Positions 4,975-53,842 of a DNA stretch of 64,000 nucleotides are shown in pieces (position 1 is the stretch's first letter; each line of letters begins with the position of its first letter). This DNA comes from Acidobacteriota bacterium (GTDB lineage Bacteria > Actinomycetota > AC-67), in NCBI GenBank assembly GCA_016208485.1, contig JACQXY010000049.1, positions 2,800 through 66,799 of the forward strand, in the 5' to 3' direction. The notes under the pieces were generated by a model. It was not told where the DNA came from. It saw only the letters and a list, made by a program, of their open reading frames with translations, and did no database searches. The translations under genes were made by a program, and so were the position numbers.

Positions 4975-7809
4975 CTACGCGAAACAATTGGAGTCGGTGA
5001 TAGTGAACGTGATGCTCGGGGTGCGGAGATAAAGCGGCGAGCTGCGGACGGGGTCATGGAAATCAAACTTCGCATGGGCCCCCCGGTTGAACGCTGCATG
5101 GACTTTCACGGTAACCCGAAGCTGAGCGTAGAAGAACCAGTACTCGGCTTCGCCCATCGCCGCCGTCCAAGAGTAGGTACCTGACTTGGTTTGGTCGCCT
5201 GGGTTGTTGATGGATATGTCCCCAGCAGCGTGCGCGCCGGCGAACGCCACGCTACCCCCGTCACCGTTTGGCTCGGAGCCGATAATCTCATGGCCCTTGT
5301 GAATGCTCGCGTCCGCATCGGCCCATGATTCCCCCAGCCAGACCGGAGGGATAGGCGACAATATTGATGTGTCCGCCTCCGGTCGGCCCCGGCCTCCGTA
5401 CGGCATGGAGACAGTGACATGCATGGGCCTGGGGCAAGACCCCGACTTGCAGAAAAGCCCAACGGCGAACCCAACGCGCCCACTCCCATCGGCCAGGTCA
5501 TCGTTGTTGAAGCCCCACCCTGCCTGCGACGCCTCGCCCCGGACCAGGACGGCATTTCGTCCCGGGGTGGGGTCCGGATCCGCAACGATCTCAGCGTGAC
5601 CCCCGCTGGACCTCTGCTCCGTCGGGGGAGGGAATTCCTTGTAGAAGTAGCCGGCGTCGGCCTCGTTGAGCGTAAGCGTCTTCTTGCATGTGCCTCCGGC
5701 CAAGCTTTCCGGGATTACGGGTAGAAGCCCGGCAGGGGAACCAACGGTCCTTGTTGGACCGGTAGCGGATATCTCGGCGGGGAAGAGATCGCAGGGAGTG
5801 GGCGAGGCGAAAAACAGCGAGCAAATCTCCTGCGCGGTCGAGTTCGAAGAGATCCCTGGCTGGGCGGTCGCCGCAGCCCATGCGTCGGCCACGGCATCGA
5901 AGAGTACAGAATGCCGACTCGTGTCGGCCGTGGCGAGTGACTCGAATCCGTGAAAACGCGGCGAGACGGCTACAGTCCTGCTCGAGCACTTCGGATCAGC
6001 GAAGGATCCCCTCACCACGAACCCGTAGCTGAGGCGCGTTCCTTCGGGCAAGCTCGCACCTGGAACCACCAAGGAGTAGGAACTCGCTCCGGTCCCTGCC
6101 GCAGTCAAGTGCTCGACGGGTCCGCCGTTCAGCGCGTAGTAGAGGATCACTTCGTCCACGCTCAGGCGGGCCGTATCGACCTGAATCGAAAGCGCCCGAT
6201 CCATGGCCGGGGCGATGGCGACTTCTTCGGCGTGGCTGACGGCAGAGTCACAGGCGCTCACGTGGACATCGATGATCGGTGGATCCCAAGCCGCCCATCG
6301 TCCCCCCACGGGGTCGGGAGAGCACGGTTCCTGTGCGGTGGCGGGATCGGCGCACGCATGCGCGCGGGGATCCCGAGTCCCTACGGGGGCCATCTCGAGG
6401 GTGGCGTCATTCCAGGTCGCAGGCACATTGGCCACGAGAGTCCCGAGTTCGGCCGTCGCCGGCACGGAGGCGAGTGTGGCCTCCCCCGTGGCGGCTTCGA
6501 CCCAGACCGGCACGCCCACCGTGCGGGTCGCCCACGCAGAGTCGCCTGCGCGGTAGGCAGGGATCGCCACGCGCGCACCGTACAAGTTCGTGCTCACCAT
6601 GGCCGACTCGAGCCCCACGTCGTGCGTAATCGTGGCGCGGCCCGCATGGCGGCTTCCTGCAACCGTAACGGGGGCGCTCGCCAGGTGGAGGGGCACGTTC
6701 TCGCACGTCGCCCTCTTCATCCCCGTGGTCAGGTCGACCTCACTCGAGACACCGCACGACGTTGGTGGAATGTCCGCCACAGAGGTCTGAGGAACAATGT
6801 TGGTCGGCAGGAACCCGCCGCCCTCGGCGAGAGGCCCGTGCTCAAGGACGGTTTCGTTCCCCGCGTAGTCACGTGCCCGGACGGAGAACCGGTAGAGGAT
6901 ACCCGCCACGAACTGAAGGGGGGACGTCTTCGCGAGCCCGGCGTTCCAGAACGCGGCGGGGGTCGAACTGTTCCCGCGGTCATCCTCCAGCGCAAAGACG
7001 ATCGTGGCGGGATCGAGGTTGGAACCGCCGGAGTCGGTGATGAGCGCCTCGAGCGGCTGGCCGCTCGGGAAGATGGTATTCGACAGGTCCCCCGGGAGGA
7101 GACCAGTGATCTCGGGGGCGGTGTTGTCGACGACATACGGGAGCGATCGCGCCGGCGAGAGAGAGACTCCCGAGGAACACTCCCGGGCCACATAGGTGAG
7201 GAGATACGTGCCCTCCTGAGTGAGCTCGGCCAAATCCACGGTCCAGGACCAGGTCGAACCATCGCCGCCCGACGCCGTCAAGGTGGCCGGGGAAGACGTC
7301 CCCGTACGAGAGTCCGTGACGTACACGCACGACCGCCCGCCGCTGTCGCCGGGGGAGCCGGGAAGAGGTGCCCGGGAGAGGACCGTGAGAACGCCCTGGG
7401 CGGGCCCCCCAGCCGTCGAGAAAACGGCGCGCGAGAGGTCGCCGCTGACCTTGTAGAGAAGAGTGAAGTCCGCTGTCGTGTCGAGAGGAAGGGTCACGTT
7501 CACGGTCTGCGACGCCGGTTCGGTGTCGGCGCGCGAGGCATCCAACGTGTAGCTGCCCAAGTTGCTCTCCCCAAGCTCGTAGGCCCCGGCCGCATCCGCT
7601 TGAACCGTCTGGGAACCGTCGGTGACGGAAGCGCCCGGCAGGGGACGCCCGATGGCGTCTGCCACAACACCGCGGAAGTGGAAGAGCACGACGCCGCCAC
7701 CGATCTCCGAAGCAACAGCCGGTGGAGCCAAGGACAGCAGAAGCGACAGGATCCCGATCCCCGCAGTCTGAACTGACCCGATCCTTGCCCTGTTTGCGCC
7801 CATGATCAT
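4975..7809 (-). CDS. Large secreted protein (944 aa) with an N-terminal carboxypeptidase-regulatory-like (CarboxypepD_reg / Ig-like) domain; function unknown
   Basis: The start ATG at 7809 follows gggagggg. The signal peptide is MIMGANRARIGSVQTAGIGILSLLLSLAPPAVAS. The motif GVVADAIGRPLPGASVTDGSQTVQADAAGAYEL is a typical CarboxypepD_reg beta-sandwich. The rest is a long Thr/Ser/Gly/Ala-rich beta-rich sequence. GC3 is high. Confidence 0.7.
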   Translation of the reverse strand: MIMGANRARIGSVQTAGIGILSLLLSLAPPAVASEIGGGVVLFHFRGVVADAIGRPLPGASVTDGSQTVQADAAGAYELGESNLGSYTLDASRADTEPASQTVNVTLPLDTTADFTLLYKVSGDLSRAVFSTAGGPAQGVLTVLSRAPLPGSPGDSGGRSCVYVTDSRTGTSSPATLTASGGDGSTWSWTVDLAELTQEGTYLLTYVARECSSGVSLSPARSLPYVVDNTAPEITGLLPGDLSNTIFPSGQPLEALITDSGGSNLDPATIVFALEDDRGNSSTPAAFWNAGLAKTSPLQFVAGILYRFSVRARDYAGNETVLEHGPLAEGGGFLPTNIVPQTSVADIPPTSCGVSSEVDLTTGMKRATCENVPLHLASAPVTVAGSRHAGRATITHDVGLESAMVSTNLYGARVAIPAYRAGDSAWATRTVGVPVWVEAATGEATLASVPATAELGTLVANVPATWNDATLEMAPVGTRDPRAHACADPATAQEPCSPDPVGGRWAAWDPPIIDVHVSACDSAVSHAEEVAIAPAMDRALSIQVDTARLSVDEVILYYALNGGPVEHLTAAGTGASSYSLVVPGASLPEGTRLSYGFVVRGSFADPKCSSRTVAVSPRFHGFESLATADTSRHSVLFDAVADAWAAATAQPGISSNSTAQEICSLFFASPTPCDLFPAEISATGPTRTVGSPAGLLPVIPESLAGGTCKKTLTLNEADAGYFYKEFPPPTEQRSSGGHAEIVADPDPTPGRNAVLVRGEASQAGWGFNNDDLADGSGRVGFAVGLFCKSGSCPRPMHVTVSMPYGGRGRPEADTSILSPIPPVWLGESWADADASIHKGHEIIGSEPNGDGGSVAFAGAHAAGDISINNPGDQTKSGTYSWTAAMGEAEYWFFYAQLRVTVKVHAAFNRGAHAKFDFHDPVRSSPLYLRTPSITFTITDSNCFA

Positions 7810-24208: not shown

Positions 24209-24747
24209 CTACGCCGGCCGATTCTCCTCGGAGATGTCGGCGAGCACTGGGTTCCCCCGGTCGCGCTCGGATAAGTGCGGCTCCCCGGGAGGCCAGGCGA
24301 TCCCGAGCGCCGGATCGTCCCAACGGACCCCCAGCTCGTCGGAGCCGTCGTAGTAGTCGTCCGCCAGGTAGACGAGCGTAGCATCCGTGAGCGCCCAGAA
24401 GCCGTGCGCCACCCCCGGCGGCACGTACAGGCCACCCGCCGCCTCACCGTCCAGCTCGAAGCTCTCGCTCGCCCCCCTCGTCGGCGAGGACTCCCGGAGG
24501 TCGTAGAGCCCTGCGAGCATCCGGCCGGTGATGACCGTCACGTAGTCCGCCTGGAACAGGTGGTAGTGCATCCCCCGCAGGACGCCGGCCCGCGAGTCGC
24601 TCCGACTCCCCTGGACCATCTCGCGCGCGCCGGGGATCCAGGAACGGCGGAAGGCCTCCACGAAGCGCCCGCGCGCGTCGGGCCACTGCCCGGGCCGAAC
24701 GTGGTAGACCCCGGAGATGCGCGCGGACTCCCAGACCTCGGCCACGG
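24209..24747 (-). CDS. rmlC: dTDP-4-dehydrorhamnose 3,5-epimerase
   Basis: ISGVYHVRPGQWPDARGRFVEAFR..., ...GVLRGMHYHL.QADYVTVITG..., ...VPPGVAHGFWALTD... are cupin RmlC motifs. The start is set at a GTG (VAEVW), because the track ORF extends into the 16S spacer. No rmlA, rmlB or rmlD adjacent. Confidence 0.75.
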
Positions 24748-24892
24748 CGCGGGAGTGTACCCGGGAACACCCTGCCGAGAAGCAAAGAGGGCGCCCGCGT
24801 AGGACGCCCTCGAGGCTTGCGCCGGGGAAGCTGCATAGCGAGGACGAGAGTGGGTTGACCTGATTGTCGGGAGTTACCCCGAAGGGTTTACT

Positions 24893-26719
<1,827 letters not shown>

Positions 26720-26947
26720 CCTCCATCGAGTTCTCACTCAGACCGGCCGGAGCCGGCCAGGTTTGATCTCTATGCAAGGCGTTACTTCAGGCGCCCACTC
26801 TCTGCGGATCCCTCGGCCCGCTCACGCGAGCCTCAGGAGTGCGTGTCCTCGCTATGCAGTTTTCAAGGCGCAAGCATGCCAAACTCCAAGCCCTACCCGG
26901 TCTTGGGGTCTGGCGAACTTTCAAGGCCGCCTCAGACGACCGCCGCT

Positions 26948-37073: not shown

Positions 37074-37504
37074 GCCGTCGCCGCCCCTCGTTCCCGACGC
37101 TCGCCGCGGTCGCCGTCGCCTCCCTCGGAAGCCTGCTCATCGCCATCGGGGCGCGCAGCCCGCACACGCACACCAACCTCGAGCCCGGCTTCCACGTCTC
37201 CTACGTCCGCACGGCCCCGAGCTTCGTCGGCCCCCCCGAGCATGTCATGGCGATGACCGGGGGTCAGATCCCCTCCGGGGGGGGCGAGGCCGCGCGCGGC
37301 CGGGCGCTCTTCTACGGGATGATGTGCGCGTCGTGCCACGGACTCGGCGCTCAAGGCGGGCTGGTAGGCCCCGGGCTGGCCGGGCTCGGCGCTGAAGCCG
37401 TGATGGACGCGGTCGAAGAGGGACCGGGAGGAATGCCGCGATTCCACTTGACCCACGAGGAGATCCGAGCGATCGTGGCTTTCCTCAAAGCCGCCGAGGA
37501 CTAG
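37070..37504 (+). CDS. Membrane-anchored monoheme c-type cytochrome
   Basis: The GTG overlaps the upstream TGA. The N-terminal TM helix is PTLAAVAVASLGSLLIAIGA. The heme motif CASCH sits in the context GRALFYGMMCASCHGLGAQG, and there is a distal Met (GGMPRF). Confidence 0.75.
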   Translation: MSRRRPSFPTLAAVAVASLGSLLIAIGARSPHTHTNLEPGFHVSYVRTAPSFVGPPEHVMAMTGGQIPSGGGEAARGRALFYGMMCASCHGLGAQGGLVGPGLAGLGAEAVMDAVEEGPGGMPRFHLTHEEIRAIVAFLKAAED

Positions 37505-40877: not shown

Positions 40878-41186
40878 GTGGGGATCGCGTCCCAGCTCCT
40901 CGTTGAGGCCCGGCGCGTGGCCGGTCTCACGCAGGCGGCGCTCGCGCGGAGAGCGGGCATGCCCCGTTCGGTCTTGAACGCCTACGAGCGCGGGAATCGC
41001 GAACCGGGAGCCGGCGCGCTCGCCGGCATCCTTGCGGCGGCCGGCTTCGAGCTTCGCCTCGCTCCGCTGATCGATCGCGAGCGCAACGCTCGAGTGCTCG
41101 CGGAGGTCCTCGACCTGGCGGAGCGGCTGCCGTGGCGGCCTCGCCGCACGCTCGCCTTCCCGCCGTTTCGACGCAGGGCCCAATGA
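40878..41186 (+). CDS. XRE-family HTH protein
   Basis: VAGLTQAALARRAGMPRSVLNAYERGNREP is a Cro/C1-type HTH. 102 aa. Translationally coupled to the downstream nucleotidyltransferase gene. Confidence 0.65.
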   Translation: MGIASQLLVEARRVAGLTQAALARRAGMPRSVLNAYERGNREPGAGALAGILAAAGFELRLAPLIDRERNARVLAEVLDLAERLPWRPRRTLAFPPFRRRAQ

Positions 41187-41719
41187 GCGTCCTGGCGAAG
41201 CAGCTGCTCGCCGTGCACGCCGCGCTCGACCGGGCAGGGCTCCCCCATGCCTTCGGCGGCGCGATCGCTCTCGCCTACTGGACCCAGGAGCCGCGCGGGA
41301 CCAGGGACCTCGACGTGAACGTCTTCGTCGCTCCCGAGCGAGCGGACGAGGCGCTCGACGCGTTGCCGCGCGGCGTCGCGGTCCGGCCCGCAGACCGGGC
41401 CACCGCGCGCCGCGATGGGCAGGCGCGCGTGATGTGGGGCGACACCCCCGTGGACCTCTTCTTCGACACCCACGCGTTTCATCGTGAAGCCGCCGACGGC
41501 GTTGTGGGCGTGCCGTTCGAGGGCGCGACGATCCCGGTGCTCGGCGCCGAGGCGCTCATCGTGTTCAAGGCCATGTTCAACCGGACGCGGGACTGGGCGG
41601 ACATCGAGGCGATGCTCGACGCCGGCTCGGTGGACGGCCACCGCGCGCTCGAGCGCCTGCGGTCCTTGCTGGGGGAATCCGACCCGGCGGTCGCGCGGCT
41701 CACCGCGCTCGTTCGTTAG
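41183..41719 (+). CDS. Nucleotidyltransferase-fold protein (pol-beta superfamily)
   Basis: The ATG overlaps the upstream TGA. GGAIALAYWTQEPRGTRDLDVNVFV is a G[SG]-x9-13-D-x-D nucleotidyltransferase motif. 178 aa. Confidence 0.6.
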   Translation: MSVLAKQLLAVHAALDRAGLPHAFGGAIALAYWTQEPRGTRDLDVNVFVAPERADEALDALPRGVAVRPADRATARRDGQARVMWGDTPVDLFFDTHAFHREAADGVVGVPFEGATIPVLGAEALIVFKAMFNRTRDWADIEAMLDAGSVDGHRALERLRSLLGESDPAVARLTALVR

Positions 41720-41804: not shown

Positions 41805-43220
41805 ATGGCCGAGTTCCGGATCGAGAAGGACTCGATGGGTGAGGTGCGTGTGCCGGCCGCGGCGTACTGGGGCGCGCAGTCCCAGCGCGCGGTCGACAAT
41901 TTCCCGGTCAGCGGGATCCGATTCCCCAGGCGCTTCATCTGGGCGCTCGGGGTCATCAAGTGGGCGGCGGCGCAGGTGAACGAGGATCTCGGGAACGTGG
42001 ACGGTCGGCGCGCCGAGGCGATCCGCAAGGCCGCCGACGAGGTGATCGACGGCGCGCTCGACGACCAGTTCGTGCTCGACATATTCCAGACGGGATCGGG
42101 CACCTCGACCAACATGAACGCGAACGAGGTGATCGCGAACCGGGCCTCGGAGCTGCTCGGCGCGGCGCGCGGCTCCCGCGAGGTCCACCCGAACGACCAC
42201 GTGAACACCGGCCAGTCCTCGAACGACGCGATCCCGACCGCGATCCACCTCGCGGCCATAGCCGGCATCCGGGAGGATCTGCTGCCGGCGATGGCGCGGC
42301 TCGCCGGCTCGCTCCGCTCGAAGGCAGCCGAGTTCGCCGAGGTCTTGAAGGTGGGACGCACCCACCTGATGGACGCCACGCCGATCATGCTCGGCCAGGA
42401 GCTGGGCGGCTACGCGACCCAGGTCGAGAAGGGCGCGGCGCGGCTGCTCGACGCCTGCGGACGGCTCGGCGAGCTGGCGCTCGGCGGGACGGCGGTCGGG
42501 ACGGGCCTGAACGCCGACCCCCAGTTCGCGCCGAGAGCGATCGCGCTCATCCGCGAGCGGACCGGCCTGGACGTGCGGGAGGCCGAGGATCACTTCGAGG
42601 CTCAGGGGTCGAAGGACGCCTGCGTCGAGACGTCCGGGGCCCTTCGCACTCTCGCCGCGTCGCTCCTCAAGATCGCGAACGACGTGCGGTGGATGGGCTC
42701 CGGGCCGAGGGCCGGGATCGGAGAGCTGCGCCTGCCCGAGCTGCAGCCCGGGTCCTCGATCATGCCGGGCAAGGTGAACCCGGTGATCCCGGAGGTCGTG
42801 ACGCAGGTGGCCGTTCAGGTGATCGGAAACGACCAGGCGGTGACGATCGCCGGCGCGATGGGCAACTTCGAACTGAACGTGTTCATGCCCCTCATCGCAC
42901 GCAACCTGATCGAGTCGATCGCGCTGCTCACCTCCGCGTGCCGGCTGTTCGCCGAGAAGTGCATCGACGGCCTCGGGGCGGACGTGGACCGCGCGCGCTC
43001 TCTCGTCGAGCAGTCCTTCCCGATCGTGACCGCGCTCGTGCCGAAGATCGGCTACGACAAGGCTGCGGAGATCTCGAAGATCGCGTACAAGACCGGGCGC
43101 GCCGTCCGCGACGTGGCGCTCGAGCTGTCCGGCCTCTCGGCCGGCGAGCTGGACGAAGCGCTCGACCTCGCGAAGATGACGCGGGGAGGGATCGTCGCGC
43201 CGGGCCTCGGCGGGGGCTGA
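41805..43220 (+). CDS. fumC: Class II fumarate hydratase (fumarase C / aspartase family)
   Basis: EKDSMGEVRVPAAAYWGAQSQRA, QTGSGTSTNMNANEVIANRASELLG and the SS-loop GSSIMPGKVNP are FumC-like rather than AspA-like. The VIPEVVTQ segment resembles aspartase, so the family is certain but the subtype is moderately so. Confidence 0.75.
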   Translation: MAEFRIEKDSMGEVRVPAAAYWGAQSQRAVDNFPVSGIRFPRRFIWALGVIKWAAAQVNEDLGNVDGRRAEAIRKAADEVIDGALDDQFVLDIFQTGSGTSTNMNANEVIANRASELLGAARGSREVHPNDHVNTGQSSNDAIPTAIHLAAIAGIREDLLPAMARLAGSLRSKAAEFAEVLKVGRTHLMDATPIMLGQELGGYATQVEKGAARLLDACGRLGELALGGTAVGTGLNADPQFAPRAIALIRERTGLDVREAEDHFEAQGSKDACVETSGALRTLAASLLKIANDVRWMGSGPRAGIGELRLPELQPGSSIMPGKVNPVIPEVVTQVAVQVIGNDQAVTIAGAMGNFELNVFMPLIARNLIESIALLTSACRLFAEKCIDGLGADVDRARSLVEQSFPIVTALVPKIGYDKAAEISKIAYKTGRAVRDVALELSGLSAGELDEALDLAKMTRGGIVAPGLGGG

Positions 43221-43441
43221 GCGCCGGCCCCGGGGACCCCCGGCCAAGCTCGACCGACCCCCGGGACTTGACGCCTGCCGCGCCGGGTGACACGATCACA
43301 TCGTTCGTCTCGGACATTTCATGGCTCTCAGCGCATCCCTCCGGAGACGAGCGAACCCGGCGGTTCCGAACAACTGCTCTGCCGGAGCCGGCGGCGAGCA
43401 GCAGAAGAGCGGCCGCGACCACCTGAGATGGAGGCGGGGAT

Positions 43442-43458
43442 GAGAGAGAGAGAGAGAG
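43442..43458. repeat. (GA)8 dinucleotide tract immediately after a candidate ATG at 43440, in the 5' end of the giant BNR-repeat protein gene
   Basis: GGAGGcggggATG agagagagagagagag ttcc. A perfect 8-unit GA microsatellite is highly unusual in a 70% GC context. Confidence 0.9.
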
Positions 43459-43534
43459 TTCCCCAAGATGCGCGGCGAATCGCCGCAGGCGCGCCGGCTT
43501 CGTAGGCGCATGGACTCTTCTGCTGGTCGTCGTC

Positions 43535-46500
43535 ATGTCTCCCGTCCAGGGGATTGCCGGGCAGCTGGTTGAGGGTGCCCCAACCGACGCGACCGGGACT
43601 CCCCACGCCCGCAAGCTGTTCCAGGCATCCGACGGGCGCCTCCTCTTCTTCAGCCTCGAGCCCATCACCGGTGCGGACAAGGTCGTATACAGGATCTCCT
43701 CCGATCAAGGAGCGACCTGGGGCACCCCGGTCGTGGTCGGAAGCGCCAACCGGACCGGTGGGCTCGATGTCGCCCAGTCCGGCGACTCCTTCCTCCTTGC
43801 CTACACGACCGGAGCGTCGAGTTCCCGGCAGGGGGCTTTCCGCGAGCTGACTGCCCAGACCGGGGTGTGGCAGGCGGGGGCGGAGCATGCCGTCGTCACC
43901 GGCACGGGGTCGGTGGCAAACCCAAGCGTCGTCGACCGAGGGGCGGGAGCACTCGGCAGGCGCCTCGCAGTGGCATTCACCCGCTCGGATGCGCTGCTCG
44001 GGACGGAGTTCCTGGCAAGCGTCTCTGAGGACGGCGGCGCGACCTGGATCGGGCCCTCCTCCTGCGGAGCCGTCTCGTGGGCCGATACCCTCGCCGCGCA
44101 AGGCGAGCGAACCATCTGCGTCACCGCTCCGACGGGCGCGCTCGAGTGGCGGGAGTGGACGGGGGTGACCTGGGGGCCGTCGCAGTCCCTCGCGCCGATC
44201 TCCGGCGGCCAGGACGCCCCGAGCACCGTCGCGACCGATGATGGGACGCTTCACCTGGTGGCCGCGGGAGCAGACACCGACGGCGACCCCGGGATCTACC
44301 ACACGGCGCTTGCGCCGGGGGCCCAGGCGTGGGACGCGCCCTGGCAGATCGGCTCGGGCGCGGCACCCGTCGTCACGACCGACGGGGCGCGCCTTCGCGT
44401 CTACGCGGCCGACCGGCTGTCCGCAGCCGAGAGTCTGATCCGCTCCTACGACTCGACCGACACCGACTTGTGGGCGGCCCGGGAGGCGATGTCGGGCGGC
44501 CCCTTCGGCTACGTCCTCGACTACAACGCCTCCTGGGCATTCGAGGAGCGCCCCGGGGACGCACTCTTCGGCCTCGCCGACGCCGCGGGCGCGACCGGGA
44601 ACCGCATCGGAACGTCCTCGGTCCTGCACCGTCTGGACGCCGCGGAGAAGAAGCTCTCCTTCAGCTTCGAGCCCGAGGCGGGCGGGGCGGTGAGCACGAT
44701 CGATCTCTGGGTGAGCACGCACAATCCCCCGACCTACCGGATCGGGCTTCAGACCGACGCCGGGGGAGTACCGAGCGGCACGTGGCTCGACGAGGTCCGG
44801 GTCGGCGGCATCCTGATCTCGGGCGCCTACTCCGAGGTCTCTCTCCCGGCATCGAGGTCGTCGGCATCCTCCGGCGCGGTGCTCGCAACCGTCACGATCC
44901 CGAGCACCCCGGTGGAGGCGCACCGCCGCTACCACGTGGTGGCAGAGCCGGTTCCGAGCCCCCTCGGCACGAGCGCCGGACCCGAGAACTGGGCGAGCTT
45001 CCAGGGGGTCGGCGCCGATGCGGGGGCGGGCGAGGGCCTGCTCGTGCTCGACCGCGTGCAGGCGGGCTCGACGTGGAACTGGCACGTGTCGGCGGGAGAG
45101 GTGCCCCGCGTCGTGGTCGGGTCGGCGACGGCGACGCTGGTGGACCAAGAGCTTGCCCCCGGCCCGACGGAGGCCGCGACCGAGTACTCGGTGCCGGGCG
45201 AGTCCTTCGTCTCTCCCCGCGATATCTCGCCGACCGAGGTCCGGGTCTTCCTGGTCAAGAACGGAGTTCCGCCCGGCCCCGTGACGGTCCGGATCCTGGA
45301 CGGCGCCGGGACCCAGATGTGGTCGGCGCAGGTGACACCTGCCTCCGGCGGGTGGGTCTCGGTGCCCGCCTCGGGCCTGAGCCTCTCCGCGGGGGGCCGC
45401 TACTCTCTCATTCTTGACGTCCCAACGCGGGACGTCGTGAACTACTGGGCGCTCGCAAGCTCAGACGGCGAGTCCTCTTCCTGGGGAGGGGCTGGGTCGT
45501 TCTTCCTTGGGGCTCCCGACCGCCCGGGGTTCAACGAGCGCACGGCCGAGGCCCAGCAGTCCCGTGACTGGACCGTCGACCTCGTCGCCTTCAACTCCGG
45601 CGCGGGCGACGCCCTCTACCTCGGCGCGGCGATGCCGTTTGACTTCGCGACGCTCCTCCGGGCATGGGCGGACCCCGGGACCACGGTTGCAACCGCGTGG
45701 TCGTACTGGAACGGGAGCGCGTGGGCGGCGCTCCCCGGGACGAGGAACGACTTCGGGGGGCCAACGGGGGAGGCGGAGCTTTCCCCGCCGTCCGACTGGG
45801 CGCCCACGAGCGTGGACGGCCGGGCCGCCTACTGGGCGAAGGTGAGCGCCCCCGGCGCTCCGGCGCCGATCGACATCGACCGAGCGACGACGATCCGCGA
45901 TCTCGGGTCCCCGACGGTCGCCCCCCGGGCGCAGGGCGCGATCCCGGTCGCCTACCGGAACTCCGCCGGCGCGGGGGTCGTGGAGTTCTTGATGGACCCC
46001 GGACCAGGCCCACTTGCGGGCCCCGATGTCACAAGCTACCTCTCCCCGGCCGCCTGGTGTCTTTGGGCACCGCACTTCGACGGACAGAACACCGCGAAGT
46101 ACATTGTCGGAGGCGACGCCGGCCGGTACATAAAGGCGTCGGTGGGCTGCCCGAACACATACGATCCTACTCAACTGGCCGTTTCGCTTCAGCAGGGCGA
46201 GCGGCGATACATCTACGGGCGGCTCGCGGCCAGTCAGAACACGGGGCTCCGATACATGCAGCTGGTGCAGGCGCAGTGCGCGAGCGAGTACGGCGTATCG
46301 ACCACGGAGAACAACCTCGAGAGGGACGCCGCGGCGACCAAGGTAACTCCGGTTCGATACCTCTTCACCGCAGGCGACGCGGGCACCTACACCTGCCGTC
46401 TGAAGGCCAGAGCGCACGACCTTCTGACCACCGACGACGAAAGTCATCTGCGGATTCTTCCCTCGGACACCTACCTCAAGATCATTGGGGAGGACAAGGT

Positions 46501-47047
46501 TGGAGCCGAGCAGTGGCGGGAAGGCGACGAACCGTCCCTGGTCGACCCGATCGTTGATCCAACAATCATCGCCGCCCAAGGCCAGCCGCTCATCTGGCCG
46601 GGCGATACCCGTACCGTGCTCAGCTACACATGGACCGCACTCTCGGTCGCGAGCGGTGTACAGATCATGGGGGATGTGGAGCCTACGACCTGCTGGGGCT
46701 ACTGCGATGCCGACGGGGACGGCGTCGCGGAGAACTCGGAGAACGGTGACTATTTCAATTCGAAGGTCGCCACAACCCTCACGGTCAGGCCCGAGAGCAT
46801 TCTCGATCCGACGCTCTCCTGCTCCGCCGCGACATACGCTATGCCCCCCGAGACCATCACAACGGCCGAACATCACGTCAAGCTCTTCCATACGCTCGAC
46901 TTGGCCGAAGTTCTCCAGGCGCCGACCGCTGCCTACTGCACTCGGGTCTTCGACATCGAGGTCCAGATCTACGTCAAGTCCGGCAACCCGGTCCTCTTCC
47001 ATGCGGGCGGGCCCTCGGTGGGGATCGCGATGAACCGTTTTCCGTAG
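43535..47047 (+). CDS. Giant BNR/Asp-box-repeat protein (1170 aa; sialidase/sortilin-like beta-propeller plus a long Ser/Thr/Gly-rich region). As annotated it lacks a signal peptide
   Basis: Asp-box repeats SSDQGATWG and SEDGGATWIG. In the same frame upstream of the Met at 43535, back to a stop at 43424, the translation is ...NRRRRAGFVGAWTLLLVVVM- (signal-peptide-like). That frame contains no start codon. The ATG at 43440 would be in frame only if the (GA) tract were 7 or 10 units. Confidence 0.7.
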   Translation: MSPVQGIAGQLVEGAPTDATGTPHARKLFQASDGRLLFFSLEPITGADKVVYRISSDQGATWGTPVVVGSANRTGGLDVAQSGDSFLLAYTTGASSSRQGAFRELTAQTGVWQAGAEHAVVTGTGSVANPSVVDRGAGALGRRLAVAFTRSDALLGTEFLASVSEDGGATWIGPSSCGAVSWADTLAAQGERTICVTAPTGALEWREWTGVTWGPSQSLAPISGGQDAPSTVATDDGTLHLVAAGADTDGDPGIYHTALAPGAQAWDAPWQIGSGAAPVVTTDGARLRVYAADRLSAAESLIRSYDSTDTDLWAAREAMSGGPFGYVLDYNASWAFEERPGDALFGLADAAGATGNRIGTSSVLHRLDAAEKKLSFSFEPEAGGAVSTIDLWVSTHNPPTYRIGLQTDAGGVPSGTWLDEVRVGGILISGAYSEVSLPASRSSASSGAVLATVTIPSTPVEAHRRYHVVAEPVPSPLGTSAGPENWASFQGVGADAGAGEGLLVLDRVQAGSTWNWHVSAGEVPRVVVGSATATLVDQELAPGPTEAATEYSVPGESFVSPRDISPTEVRVFLVKNGVPPGPVTVRILDGAGTQMWSAQVTPASGGWVSVPASGLSLSAGGRYSLILDVPTRDVVNYWALASSDGESSSWGGAGSFFLGAPDRPGFNERTAEAQQSRDWTVDLVAFNSGAGDALYLGAAMPFDFATLLRAWADPGTTVATAWSYWNGSAWAALPGTRNDFGGPTGEAELSPPSDWAPTSVDGRAAYWAKVSAPGAPAPIDIDRATTIRDLGSPTVAPRAQGAIPVAYRNSAGAGVVEFLMDPGPGPLAGPDVTSYLSPAAWCLWAPHFDGQNTAKYIVGGDAGRYIKASVGCPNTYDPTQLAVSLQQGERRYIYGRLAASQNTGLRYMQLVQAQCASEYGVSTTENNLERDAAATKVTPVRYLFTAGDAGTYTCRLKARAHDLLTTDDESHLRILPSDTYLKIIGEDKVGAEQWREGDEPSLVDPIVDPTIIAAQGQPLIWPGDTRTVLSYTWTALSVASGVQIMGDVEPTTCWGYCDADGDGVAENSENGDYFNSKVATTLTVRPESILDPTLSCSAATYAMPPETITTAEHHVKLFHTLDLAEVLQAPTAAYCTRVFDIEVQIYVKSGNPVLFHAGGPSVGIAMNRFP

Positions 47048-47066: not shown

Positions 47067-48680
47067 GTGGCGATGGTGAGGCGATGCGCGGGAAGGCACG
47101 TGGAGCCGATCCGCCAAGGGCGACCGGCTTCGGTGCTCCTGCCGGTTGCGGCTTGCGCGTGGGTGCTTCTGTTGTCGGCGTGCACGGTCCCCGGGACCCG
47201 TGCCGGGTCATCGCATCCTGAGGGTTCTCGCCATGTGCGCACATCTCTGGAGTCCGCGACCCGCGCGCCCGAGAGCTTGGGGGATCGACCGAGGAGGTCT
47301 CCAAAGACCAGAGTGGTCATCCCACGGGTGGGGGCGCGCCCAACGTCTTCTCGGCCAACGCCCTCCCCCACAGGCACGCCCACGGGGGAGGAAGGGGACA
47401 GCTGGTCCCCGTCGGTCTCGGCCGACGGGCGCTTGATCGTTTTCCAATCCGCGGAATGCTGTCTGGTGGCCGGCGATTCCAACCGAGAGACCGATGTCTT
47501 CGCGCGCGACCGCGCGACCGATACAACCACCCTGGTCTCCAACTCCTCCTCGGGTTCTCAGGGGAACAAGGCGAGCGGACAGCCGGCTGTCTCGGCCACC
47601 GGCCGCTTCGTGGCCTTCGCCTCCAGCGCGTCCAACCTTGTGTCGGGCGACACCAACAGGGTAACCGACATCTTCATCCGCGACGTCCAGGCCGACCGTA
47701 CGAGCCGGGTCTCGGTGTCCTCCTCGGGACGCCAGGATGATTCCTACAGCGGTCTGCCGGCGATCTCCGCCGACGGACGGTACGTGGCCTTCGTCTCCCG
47801 AGCGTCGAACCTTGTCCCAGACGACACCGAAACATGCAACGTAGGGGGCCAGGCTGCGAACTGCTGGGACATCTTCGTCCACGACCGAGAAACCGCCGAG
47901 ACGACCCGGGTTTCAGTTTCCTCCAAGGGCAAGGCGGGCGGGTGCTCGAGCGACCTCCCCTCGATCTCAGCCGACGGCCGATTCGTTGCCTTCCAGTCGG
48001 AGTGCGGGCTCGCCCCTGAGGACACCAACCGGGCGTGGGACGTCTTCGTCCACGACCGCGACACCGCCAAGACCACACGGGTCTCGGTGGCCTCAGATGG
48101 CACGCAAGGCAACGGCATCAGCGGCGAGCCCACGATCTCGGCCGACGGGCGCTTTGTGGCCTTCGCCTCGCTCGCATCCAACCTGGTACCCGACGACACC
48201 AACCGCTGCGCCGACCCCGATGGAGGTCCCGACCGAAGCTGCAACGACGTTTTCGTCCACGATAGGGAAACCGGCGAGACATCACGGGTGTCGGTGTCCT
48301 CCTCTGGCCGTCAGGCCGACGACCGGAGCCTGATGCCGTCTATCTCCTCGGACGGCCGCCTTGTCGCCTTCGAGTCGGGGGCGGGGAACCTGGCGGAGGG
48401 CGACCGCAACGACTACTGCGACGGTGAGGACCCGAAGCCCGCGACCTGTTGGGACATCTTCGTCCACGACCGCAAGACCGGCGAGACCACCCGGGTCTCG
48501 GTCTCCTCTTCGGGGCAGGAAGCGAACTTCTCCAGCCAGGATGCCTCGATCTCCGCCGGCGGCCGCTACGTCGCGTTCGAGTCCCAGGCGACGAACCTCG
48601 CGGATGGAGATGACGCCCAACACATCAGGGACGTGTTCGTCCACGACCGCCAGACCGGGGAGACCACGCTCGTCTCCTGA
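47067..48680 (+). CDS. Lipoprotein with PD40/TolB-type beta-propeller repeats
   Basis: Lipobox LLLSAC. Six or more repeats of the form S[IV]SADGR[FY]VAF.S.ASNLV.DDTN...D[VI]FVHDR.TGET.RVSVSS. Confidence 0.75.
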   Translation: MAMVRRCAGRHVEPIRQGRPASVLLPVAACAWVLLLSACTVPGTRAGSSHPEGSRHVRTSLESATRAPESLGDRPRRSPKTRVVIPRVGARPTSSRPTPSPTGTPTGEEGDSWSPSVSADGRLIVFQSAECCLVAGDSNRETDVFARDRATDTTTLVSNSSSGSQGNKASGQPAVSATGRFVAFASSASNLVSGDTNRVTDIFIRDVQADRTSRVSVSSSGRQDDSYSGLPAISADGRYVAFVSRASNLVPDDTETCNVGGQAANCWDIFVHDRETAETTRVSVSSKGKAGGCSSDLPSISADGRFVAFQSECGLAPEDTNRAWDVFVHDRDTAKTTRVSVASDGTQGNGISGEPTISADGRFVAFASLASNLVPDDTNRCADPDGGPDRSCNDVFVHDRETGETSRVSVSSSGRQADDRSLMPSISSDGRLVAFESGAGNLAEGDRNDYCDGEDPKPATCWDIFVHDRKTGETTRVSVSSSGQEANFSSQDASISAGGRYVAFESQATNLADGDDAQHIRDVFVHDRQTGETTLVS

Positions 48681-52672: not shown

Positions 52673-53842
52673 ATGCGCGCGCGCACACTCCTCGCCTCAA
52701 CCCTTCTGCTCGCCTCCTGCACGCGGGTCGGCGGAGATCCGGTCGTGCGCGGGCCTCTTTCCCCTTCGCCCCCGCCGCCGGCGCCGGCCGCGCTCGCCGT
52801 CTGGTCCTCCCTCGACCTGCCGCAGGCGCTCCTCGACGAGGCCCCGAATCTCCCCGGAGTGGTCGCATGGACCCCCGTCGTCACCGGGACCTTCGATCTG
52901 CGCGCGGTGTCCGGAGCCGGCGCGCATCTCCGCGCGCGGCCGCGCGGCGCGATCCTGCCGGTGTCGGTCGCGGCCATCGATCCCGCGCCCCTCGCGCGGA
53001 CGGGCGAGATGGCGGCGCTCGGCGCGGCGCTCGCGCGCAACCGTGCGGCGCTCACCTCCTCCTCCGCGCGGCTGCGGCAGCTCGCCCCCGGTGACGCCCT
53101 GTGGTTGGCCGGTGAAAAGGGAGCGCGCGGGTTCCGGGTGGGCGCGATCCTGCCGGAGTCAAACCTCATCTCGGAAGAGGTGATCCTGCCGCTGCGCGCG
53201 GCGGGCTCGCTCGGGCTCGGCCGCCCGCGCGCCATGGTGCTCGCGGTAGAGGTGCGCGCGTGGGAAGCGGTCGCCGCGGCAATCCGCGCGCGCCTGGCCG
53301 CGAGCACCGCGCGCGTGGACGGCTACGACCTCGAGCCGTTCCCGGCGCGCGTCGGCACCCTCGATGCCGTGGGCAAGCAACTCTCCTATCTGCTCCCTGC
53401 GGCCCGCGTGAAGCTCGACTTCGGCGAGTTCTGGTTCCTGCGCGGCCGGGGCCGACGAGTCCGCATCGATCCCGCTTGGGTCGCGCGAAACATCGTCCAG
53501 GTCTCTCCGCCCTTGCTCGGGACGATCAAGTGCCACCGGGACGTGGTGCCCCAGCTCACCGGGGCCATGCGGGAGCTGTCCGCTGCGGGCCTCGGCGACC
53601 TCGTCGGCCCCGGCGCGAGCTGCTGGTCGGCTCGGATGCAGTATCCCAACTCCGGCGCGCTGTCGCGGCATGCGTTCGGCATCGCGGTCGACATCAACTC
53701 CTCGCGCAACCGCTACGGGCGCCCCCCCGTGCAGGACCGGCGGCTCGTCCGCGTGATGGAGCGGTGGGGATTCGCCTGGGGGGGGCGCTGGACCGTGCCG
53801 GACGGGATGCATTTCGAGTTCGTGCGGCGCCCCGCGCGGTAG
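52673..53842 (+). CDS. Lipoprotein with a C-terminal M15-family (VanY / D-Ala-D-Ala carboxypeptidase-like) peptidase domain
   Basis: Lipobox LLLASC. C-terminal ...SRHAFGIAVDINSSRN...WGFAWGGRWTVPDGMHFEF matches the H-x6-D...H zinc-binding pattern of M15B/VanY. Confidence 0.75.
   Translation: MRARTLLASTLLLASCTRVGGDPVVRGPLSPSPPPPAPAALAVWSSLDLPQALLDEAPNLPGVVAWTPVVTGTFDLRAVSGAGAHLRARPRGAILPVSVAAIDPAPLARTGEMAALGAALARNRAALTSSSARLRQLAPGDALWLAGEKGARGFRVGAILPESNLISEEVILPLRAAGSLGLGRPRAMVLAVEVRAWEAVAAAIRARLAASTARVDGYDLEPFPARVGTLDAVGKQLSYLLPAARVKLDFGEFWFLRGRGRRVRIDPAWVARNIVQVSPPLLGTIKCHRDVVPQLTGAMRELSAAGLGDLVGPGASCWSARMQYPNSGALSRHAFGIAVDINSSRNRYGRPPVQDRRLVRVMERWGFAWGGRWTVPDGMHFEFVRRPAR

Follow-up and report, generated by a model that had tools for sequence, protein, structure and literature searches.

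A perfect GA repeat between the start codon and the export signal of a sialidase-fold protein gene: a candidate phase switch in an uncultured high-GC bacterium

In Helicobacter pylori, CT repeats located in the signal-peptide coding region of oipA/hopH, as well as of sabA and babA, set the reading frame of these genes, and tracts of 5-11 units have been reported (PMC10564699). The extracellular sialidase NanH3 of the actinobacterial Gardnerella piotii is governed by a switch residing in a 5' poly-C tract of the nanH3 gene (bioRxiv 10.1101/2020.09.16.300947). The 'phasomes' of Neisseria, Haemophilus and Campylobacter, built of simple sequence repeats (SSR), have been catalogued by PhasomeIt (PMC6321876, PMC5953494); in Campylobacter, poly-G/C tracts, and not dinucleotides, account for 91% of the catalogue (PMC6321876). 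In the present report, we describe a (GA)8 tract encountered in a stretch of 64,000 nucleotides (hereafter the window) of contig JACQXY010000049.1, assembly GCA_016208485.1, attributed by NCBI to an Acidobacteria/Acidobacteriota metagenome-assembled genome (MAG) of ~70% GC. The tract directly follows the codon that is probably the real start of the gene annotated as MBI4729551.1 and precedes codons that resemble those of a signal peptide. Almost all documented cases of repeat-driven phase variation come from pathogens and commensals adapted to a host.

The mechanism that we propose for this locus would operate as follows. Translation would start at ATG 43440, served by the GGAGG at 43430, and the precursor would consist, in this order, of Met, an (Arg-Glu)n stretch encoded by the GA tract, a Sec-type signal peptide and a secreted sialidase-fold protein of ~1170 aa. 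The (GA)8 tract would constitute a hot spot for slipped-strand mispairing, where the gain or loss of units during replication would shift the start in or out of frame. Seven or 10 units would correspond to the ON state, with an exported precursor of 1201-1203 aa, and 8 or 9 units to the OFF state, with a peptide of 21 or 44 aa; the assembled sequence would represent an OFF allele. OFF cells would make at most a cytoplasmic, signal-less protein from Met 43535, which is devoid of ribosome-binding site, and their long untranslated message would probably lower the expression of the downstream PD40 lipoprotein by polarity. We see an even chance that the locus is such a hypermutable GA-tract switch, sequenced in its OFF state. 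A phase switch had been suggested by an initial annotation made from the DNA letters, and this suggestion is partly supported: its structural half is well supported, since the tract, its frames and the context of the start can be read from the sequence, as can the signal peptide, and the family is predicted to be secreted, while a reversible change of tract length at a useful rate and the polarity effect are what we infer.

The GA tract and the start region

The tract is the longest dinucleotide repeat of the window and, CG/GC repeats aside, the only one of at least six units. The other dinucleotide repeats of at least five units are all of the CG/GC type, except one intragenic (GA)5 at 7157-7166. 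That eight GA units are improbable by chance, as had been annotated, is borne out by two approaches: dinucleotide-preserving shuffles led to 0.05 expected matches with 2 mismatches allowed, and composition models to 1.5e-5 to 5e-5 such tracts per window and ~0.016 per 5 Mb. Dinucleotide tracts are considered phase-variable from at least six units (PMC6321876), a cutoff exceeded by the eight uninterrupted units found here. In the frame of ATG 43440, the tract is read AGA-GAG-AGA-GAG-AGA. AGA is the rarest arginine codon of the window (1.3 per 1000 codons, 1.5% of the arginine codons), and the 1170-codon gene body contains a single one. Because the tract is uninterrupted and made of this rarest codon, it appears to have grown by slippage and not to be ordinary coding sequence.

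The tract is placed between the pair formed by the Shine-Dalgarno (SD) sequence and ATG and the signal-peptide codons, so that any gain or loss of a unit toggles the frame. Replacing the tract in silico gave precursors of 1199, 1201, 1203 and 1205 aa fused to ATG 43440 with 4, 7, 10 and 13 units, respectively. Short peptides of 19-25 aa resulted from 5, 8, 11 or 14 units (21 aa for 8 units) and others of 42-46 aa from 6, 9 or 12 units (44 aa for 9 units). Only lengths of 1 mod 3 units connect ATG 43440 to the gene, and the frame logic is one ON and two OFF, as in classical repeat switches. The initial expectation that the removal of one GA or the addition of two would fuse the ATG to the signal peptide proved correct, since 7 and 10 units are in frame.

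The frame of the long gene opens at 43427, immediately after its last stop (TGA 43424-43426), and reads DGGGDERERESSPRCAANRRRRAGFVGAWTLLLVVVM-SPVQGIAGQLVEG..., with a continuation beginning SPVQGIAG. As had been noticed, ATG 43440 belongs to another frame that ends after 21 codons, at TAG 43503-43505, and the long frame contains no ATG, GTG or TTG from 43427 up to Met 43535. The only near-cognate codons of this stretch are CTG 43520 and CTG 43523, both within the hydrophobic core. An alternative start endowed with its own signal, named at the outset as an argument that would speak against a switch, was examined and is ruled out in this frame by the lack of ATG, GTG or TTG and by the position of the two CTG codons. 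Met 43535 has no SD and is itself located within the hydrophobic core of the signal peptide.

No other start at the locus has a ribosome-binding context as good as that of ATG 43440. The 16S rRNA gene carried by the same window ends with the canonical anti-SD CCTCCT (GGATCACCTCCTTTCT), and the start of the neighbouring fumarase gene, as called by NCBI (GGAGG 41795, ATG 41805), displays an identical GGAGG-N5-ATG geometry. Among 21 credible genes, the 5' candidate start is preceded by a full GGAGG in 6 and by a 4-mer core in 12, and GGAGG is 3.7-fold commoner before 5' candidate starts than before internal in-frame start-like codons. A start at ATG 43468 was considered and rejected, since this codon, likewise out of frame, would call for an indel outside the repeat and its SD is weaker; it was retained solely as a variant of the artefact explanation given below.

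The (GA)8 sequence could also be functional as it stands, by recoding or by alternative initiation, an explanation that we find highly improbable. It would involve a +2 (equivalent to -1 frame) slip of tRNA-Arg(UCU) from AGA to AGA, slippage of RNA polymerase, or re-initiation at Met 43535 with a cytoplasmic product as the intended one. A 2-nt slip on a GA repeat would keep the codon-anticodon pairing and restore the exact frame needed, and the very rare AGA is potentially a slow codon here. However, no stimulatory RNA structure was found (folding of 43400-43560, z = -0.35) and the arrangement was not seen in the four homologue loci described below; a programmed ribosomal frameshift site was rejected on both grounds. 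In bacteria, slippage during transcription is described for long A/T homopolymers and is not known for GA repeats. As for initiation at Met 43535, it would take place without SD, inside a hydrophobic core, and its product would lack the N-terminal signal present in 20 of 27 relatives. A regulatory RNA at the tract was rejected as well, there being no Rfam family and no excess folding energy.

Table 1. Features of the start region and of the adjoining genes, in coordinates of the window
Feature	Position	Strand	Remarks
Class II fumarate hydratase	41805..43220	+	upstream neighbour; ends 220 nt before ATG 43440; outside the switch
Possible weak sigma-70-like promoter	43268..43296	+	TTGACG-17 nt-CACGAT, found by eye in the 220-nt fumarase/BNR intergenic region
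Shine-Dalgarno GGAGG	43430..43434	+	5-nt spacer (cgggg) before ATG 43440
ATG	43440..43442	+	probably the real start codon; at (GA)8, in another frame than the gene body
Dead-end ORF (open reading frame)	43440..43505	+	21 codons, MRERERVPQDARRIAAGAPAS*; stop TAG 43503-43505; putative OFF-state product at (GA)8
Perfect 17-nt G(AG)8	43442..43458	+	proposed slippage site; (GA)8 at 43442-43457; AGAGAGAGAGAGAGAG at 43443-43458
Start-less export signal	43459..43558	+	n-region SSPRCAANRRRR, h-region AGFVGAWTLLLVVVM, c-region SPVQGIA, then G
CDS MBI4729551.1 (HY775_08660)	43535..47047	+	NCBI annotation, 1170 aa, 'hypothetical protein'; sialidase-like propeller, all-beta domains, poorly modelled C-terminal third
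PD40 (WD40-like beta-propeller) repeat protein	47067..48680	+	lipoprotein signal ...VLLLSAC; 20 nt past the preceding stop; probably co-transcribed

The export signal and the encoded protein

Judged from its composition, the frame-2 extension of the annotated gene looks like a genuine signal peptide deprived of a start codon, a reading that is well supported. In the (GA)7 product, 7 Arg/Lys residues are followed by a 12-residue window of mean Kyte-Doolittle hydropathy 2.57 (residue 20) and then by SPVQGIA|G. By contrast, hydrophobicity windows detected no N-terminal hydrophobic segment in the annotated product that starts at Met 43535. The signal had first been described as twin-arginine/Sec-like. 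Its charged n-region, hydrophobic h-region and small-residue c-region stand; the twin-arginine (Tat) part is not supported, since a scan of NCBIfam with the (GA)7 N-terminus and with the ATG 43468 variant returned no match at E up to 10. The relevant Tat signal model is TIGR01409, which we take to be included in NCBIfam. In the sequence NRRRRAGFV, F is one residue farther from RR than in the Tat consensus (S/T-R-R-x-F-L-K type). A Tat signal, without support from a hidden Markov model and with this spacing off consensus, was rejected, and a Sec-type signal would be the simpler reading.

A charged-then-hydrophobic N-terminus is found in 20 of the 27 long homologues, and in three of these (P0021, P0027 and P0042) the signal directly abuts the core, as it would in the ON form. 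Given the signal-like extension, these homologue N-termini and the lipoprotein partner encoded downstream, the protein is expected to be exported and its start to be lost in the sequence as assembled. Sequence and model both predict a secreted or surface-exposed product, and the public entry MBI4729551.1 almost certainly lacks the real N-terminus and the export signal. With a start at the internal Met, the protein would be predicted to be cytoplasmic and would be mis-assigned.

The 1170-aa protein scores 22 bits with Pfam BNR_2, under the 31.4-bit cutoff, and 11 of 16 family members match this domain at E<0.01; two canonical Asp-boxes, SSDQGATW and SEDGGATW, are present. An AlphaFold2 model built from a 16-sequence alignment is all-beta and confident over residues 20-820, with a pLDDT of about 85-90 and block means mostly between 80 and 95, and its final 350 residues are poorly modelled. 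Foldseek ranked the Micromonospora viridifaciens sialidase 1w8o first among PDB structures (E 3.7e-11), with further matches to many GH33 sialidases, propeller lectins and GH43/GH32 propeller enzymes. The family profile reached the PDB sialidases at E 8e-5, restricted to the Asp-box region. According to this model, the protein would have beta-sandwich-like domains after a sialidase-fold propeller, the likeness to sialidases lying at the fold level. The designation 'giant BNR-repeat protein' that the gene had received applies to the N-terminal third (roughly the first 330 residues) and not to the rest, and BNR_2 is sub-threshold; the label can be called fair but generous.

A HMMER search among 1.84 billion representatives retrieved 37 proteins at E<1e-30. 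The family is small, has no Pfam model of its own and combines a core of ~800 aa (sialidase-like propeller and beta domains) with very diverse C-termini, for total lengths of 674 to 3163 aa. Most members possess an extra N-terminal module of ~200 aa, their core beginning near residue 200; the window protein is devoid of it.

The gene body is intact, with no internal stops over 1206 codons, a G+C content at third codon positions (GC3) of 0.78-0.95 and the conserved family positions kept. A downstream region so similar to a functional gene, with residues 20-820 well modelled, would also be encountered if the frame break were an artefact of assembly or consensus. The dominant sequence would then be in frame (it might have (GA)7 or (GA)10, for instance, or differ by 1 nt somewhere from 43443 to ~43480), and the gene would be an ordinary intact one for a secreted protein. 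We regard this as unlikely. It is true that the sequence comes from one metagenome-assembled contig, of which there is no independent copy, and that repeats are the commonest site of consensus indels and of mixed-population collapse. On the other hand, the local consensus looks good, because the neighbouring genes are intact end to end (fumarase, acetyl-CoA synthetase and ThiI), the 16S match is full-length and there are no Ns; in addition, a 16-nt dinucleotide tract fits well within one read length. Even a tract of true length 7 would stay frameshift-prone: the OFF call would be lost and the switch potential kept. A variant of the artefact explanation places a 1-nt insertion error past ATG 43468, a codon one base off frame that would otherwise yield a compact typical signal (MRGNRRRRAGF...). 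This requires an indel outside any repeat, and the SD of that codon (GAGAG, 9 nt upstream) is weaker than that of ATG 43440.

Conservation of the tract and surroundings of the locus

Several observations weigh against a hypermutable switch sequenced in its OFF state. The locus is known from a single MAG contig, and the 90% cluster of its protein has one member. A second copy, searched for in the JGI metagenome contigs with the pattern GGCGGGGATG-N6-34-TTCCCCAAGATGCG, gave 0 matches, and a protein-profile scan of the GTDB species representatives indicated that 0 of 117 pattern-matched stretches encode a relative. No 5' dinucleotide repeat is present at any of four homologue loci (L001, L084, L085 and L086, which are those of P0002, P0004, P0021 and P0007), whose proteins share 36-50% identity and which do not belong to strains of the same species; the tract therefore appears lineage-specific and not a conserved feature of the family. 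With one such tract in 64 kb, no 'phasome' is visible. In a repair-proficient free-living host, an 8-unit tract may also switch too slowly for a contingency locus, and the OFF consensus fits a simple loss of function equally well.

Other searches brought no further copy. The protein-profile scan of the metagenome contigs found just two distant BNR_2-domain matches, of 26-35% identity and uninformative for the tract. None of 80 loci compared by fumarase-anchored synteny, the best at 65% identity, carried a homologue of the gene, and exact-protein look-ups in the contig index, with the BNR protein and with both start variants of the fumarase, returned no record. As a separate observation, the gene of P0002 (43% identical; L001 110-127) has G6 runs flanking its start codon (cggcGGGGGGtctcATGGGGGGcatc), which matches the position of the GA tract in the window gene; these runs fall short of the usual poly-G cutoff of at least 7.

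Loss of function could have arisen through a one-off inactivating frameshift that abolished export in this lineage. The gene would then be a pseudogene of recent origin, or dispensable, and would undergo no selected reversible switching. The OFF consensus is in line with this possibility, as are the absence of the repeat from the four homologue loci and the lack of any further candidate contingency tract in the window. The family is also rare and patchy, with its 37 members among 1.84 billion representatives and none in the GTDB representatives by pattern scan, which fits an accessory, dispensable gene. Nonetheless, the 3.6-kb body is undecayed, without stops, with strong GC3 periodicity and with the family positions kept, so that any inactivation would have to be very recent. 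The mutation moreover sits in a perfect uninterrupted tract and would be revertible by the same mechanism, which is operationally phase variation. All in all, we attach a rather low probability to a one-off event.

The candidate GA-tract switch admits a more ambitious version, in which the tract would be an evolved contingency locus of a free-living uncultured high-GC bacterium, controlling stochastically the export of the sialidase-fold protein and, through polarity, the expression of its PD40 partner. This version seems doubtful to us. If it were true, the benefits may be an escape from phages or predators using the protein as receptor, or a capped cost of a secreted public good.

The gene pair formed by the BNR and PD40 genes recurs at the homologue locus L001. 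On the upstream side, the closest relative of the fumarase comes from an Acidimicrobiia MAG and is only 65% identical. The initial annotation had alluded to high-GC actinobacteria, an affiliation that is at most tentative in view of this distance and of the Acidobacteriota name given by NCBI. The 220-nt intergenic region that follows the fumarase gene has a lower GC content, and a promoter/terminator consensus scan of 43100-43700 yielded nothing that reached threshold. An ORF located just 5' of the fumarase gene, at 41132-41719 (+), shows a weak match to AbiEii (Pfam E 1.7e-5, 25.3 bits for a cutoff of 22.5) and is overlapped by a high-GC3 ORF on the opposite strand. In type IV toxin-antitoxin systems, AbiEii is the toxin, a nucleotidyltransferase.

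Farther away, the window carries a 16S rRNA gene at 24897-26729 (-) (Rfam RF00177, 1454 bits) into which a compact group I intron of ~287 nt, lacking any ORF, is inserted at about 25229-24943 (RF00028, 74 bits, full model). The intron lies within the site of the universal primer 1492R (...GAAGTCGT / AACCCAG...CACGCG / AACAAGGTAGCC...GGATCACCTCCTTTCT), and would prevent amplification with this primer. Its boundaries obey the group I rules, the 5' exon ending with U and the intron with G. Insertions in the 16S of non-CPR bacteria are rare, affecting 1.1% of the RefSeq genes (PMC11270868). In the region 24209-26729 (-), the 16S gene is followed neither by a spacer tRNA nor by a 23S gene, the next gene on this strand encoding an RmlC-like dTDP-4-dehydrorhamnose 3,5-epimerase (Pfam E 2.4e-43), and ARAGORN identified no tRNA in the whole window; since the 16S gene has no adjoining spacer tRNA or 23S, the rRNA genes appear to be unlinked. 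Finally, two pairs of runs ~40-50 nt apart were noticed, C7 37231 with G8 37277 (37231-37284) and C7 53722 with G8 53778 (53722-53785), which may be long-stem hairpins or homopolymer tracts.

Comparison with described phase-variable loci

The closest parallel is provided by oipA of H. pylori. In both cases, the start codon is immediately followed by a dinucleotide repeat that precedes the signal-peptide codons or lies among them, and CT corresponds to AG/GA on the opposite strand; in both cases, the number of repeats determines the frame of the signal peptide and of the exported protein. The two systems differ by their hosts, here an uncultured environmental MAG of ~70% GC and not a host-restricted pathogen, and by their cargo, here a 1200-aa sialidase-fold multi-domain protein instead of a beta-barrel outer membrane protein. 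The length variation of oipA is documented in hundreds of isolates, whereas the GA tract is known from one sequence.

The nanH3 gene of G. piotii shares with the present locus an exported cargo of the sialidase type and a 5' repeat adjoining the signal peptide. Most lengths of the nanH3 tract lead to a truncated peptide of 37-44 aa and every third one to the full protein, and the same logic is found here. The nanH3 tract is, however, a C8-14 homopolymer located after the signal peptide, whereas the GA tract is a dinucleotide repeat that precedes it, and the window protein resembles sialidases at the fold level only. Length heterogeneity within cultures has been shown experimentally for nanH3, whereas one consensus sequence represents the GA tract.

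The present locus agrees with the working criterion of the PhasomeIt catalogues, as it has at least six dinucleotide units near the 5' end of an ORF whose product is predicted to be secreted or exposed at the surface, and it shares with the catalogued loci a three-state logic with one ON and two OFF states. The genomes in which those loci were found contain dozens of tracts conserved across strains, in contrast to the one tract seen here in 64 kb. If the switch were real, SSR phase variation would reach well past host-associated pathogens, a working dinucleotide switch acting in such a bacterium on a secreted protein that binds or cleaves glycans would suggest that surface-protein bet-hedging takes place outside hosts, and the consensus sequences of metagenomes would mask this kind of heterogeneity. 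In terms of what is already described, the GA locus ranks as a new candidate of a known switch type.

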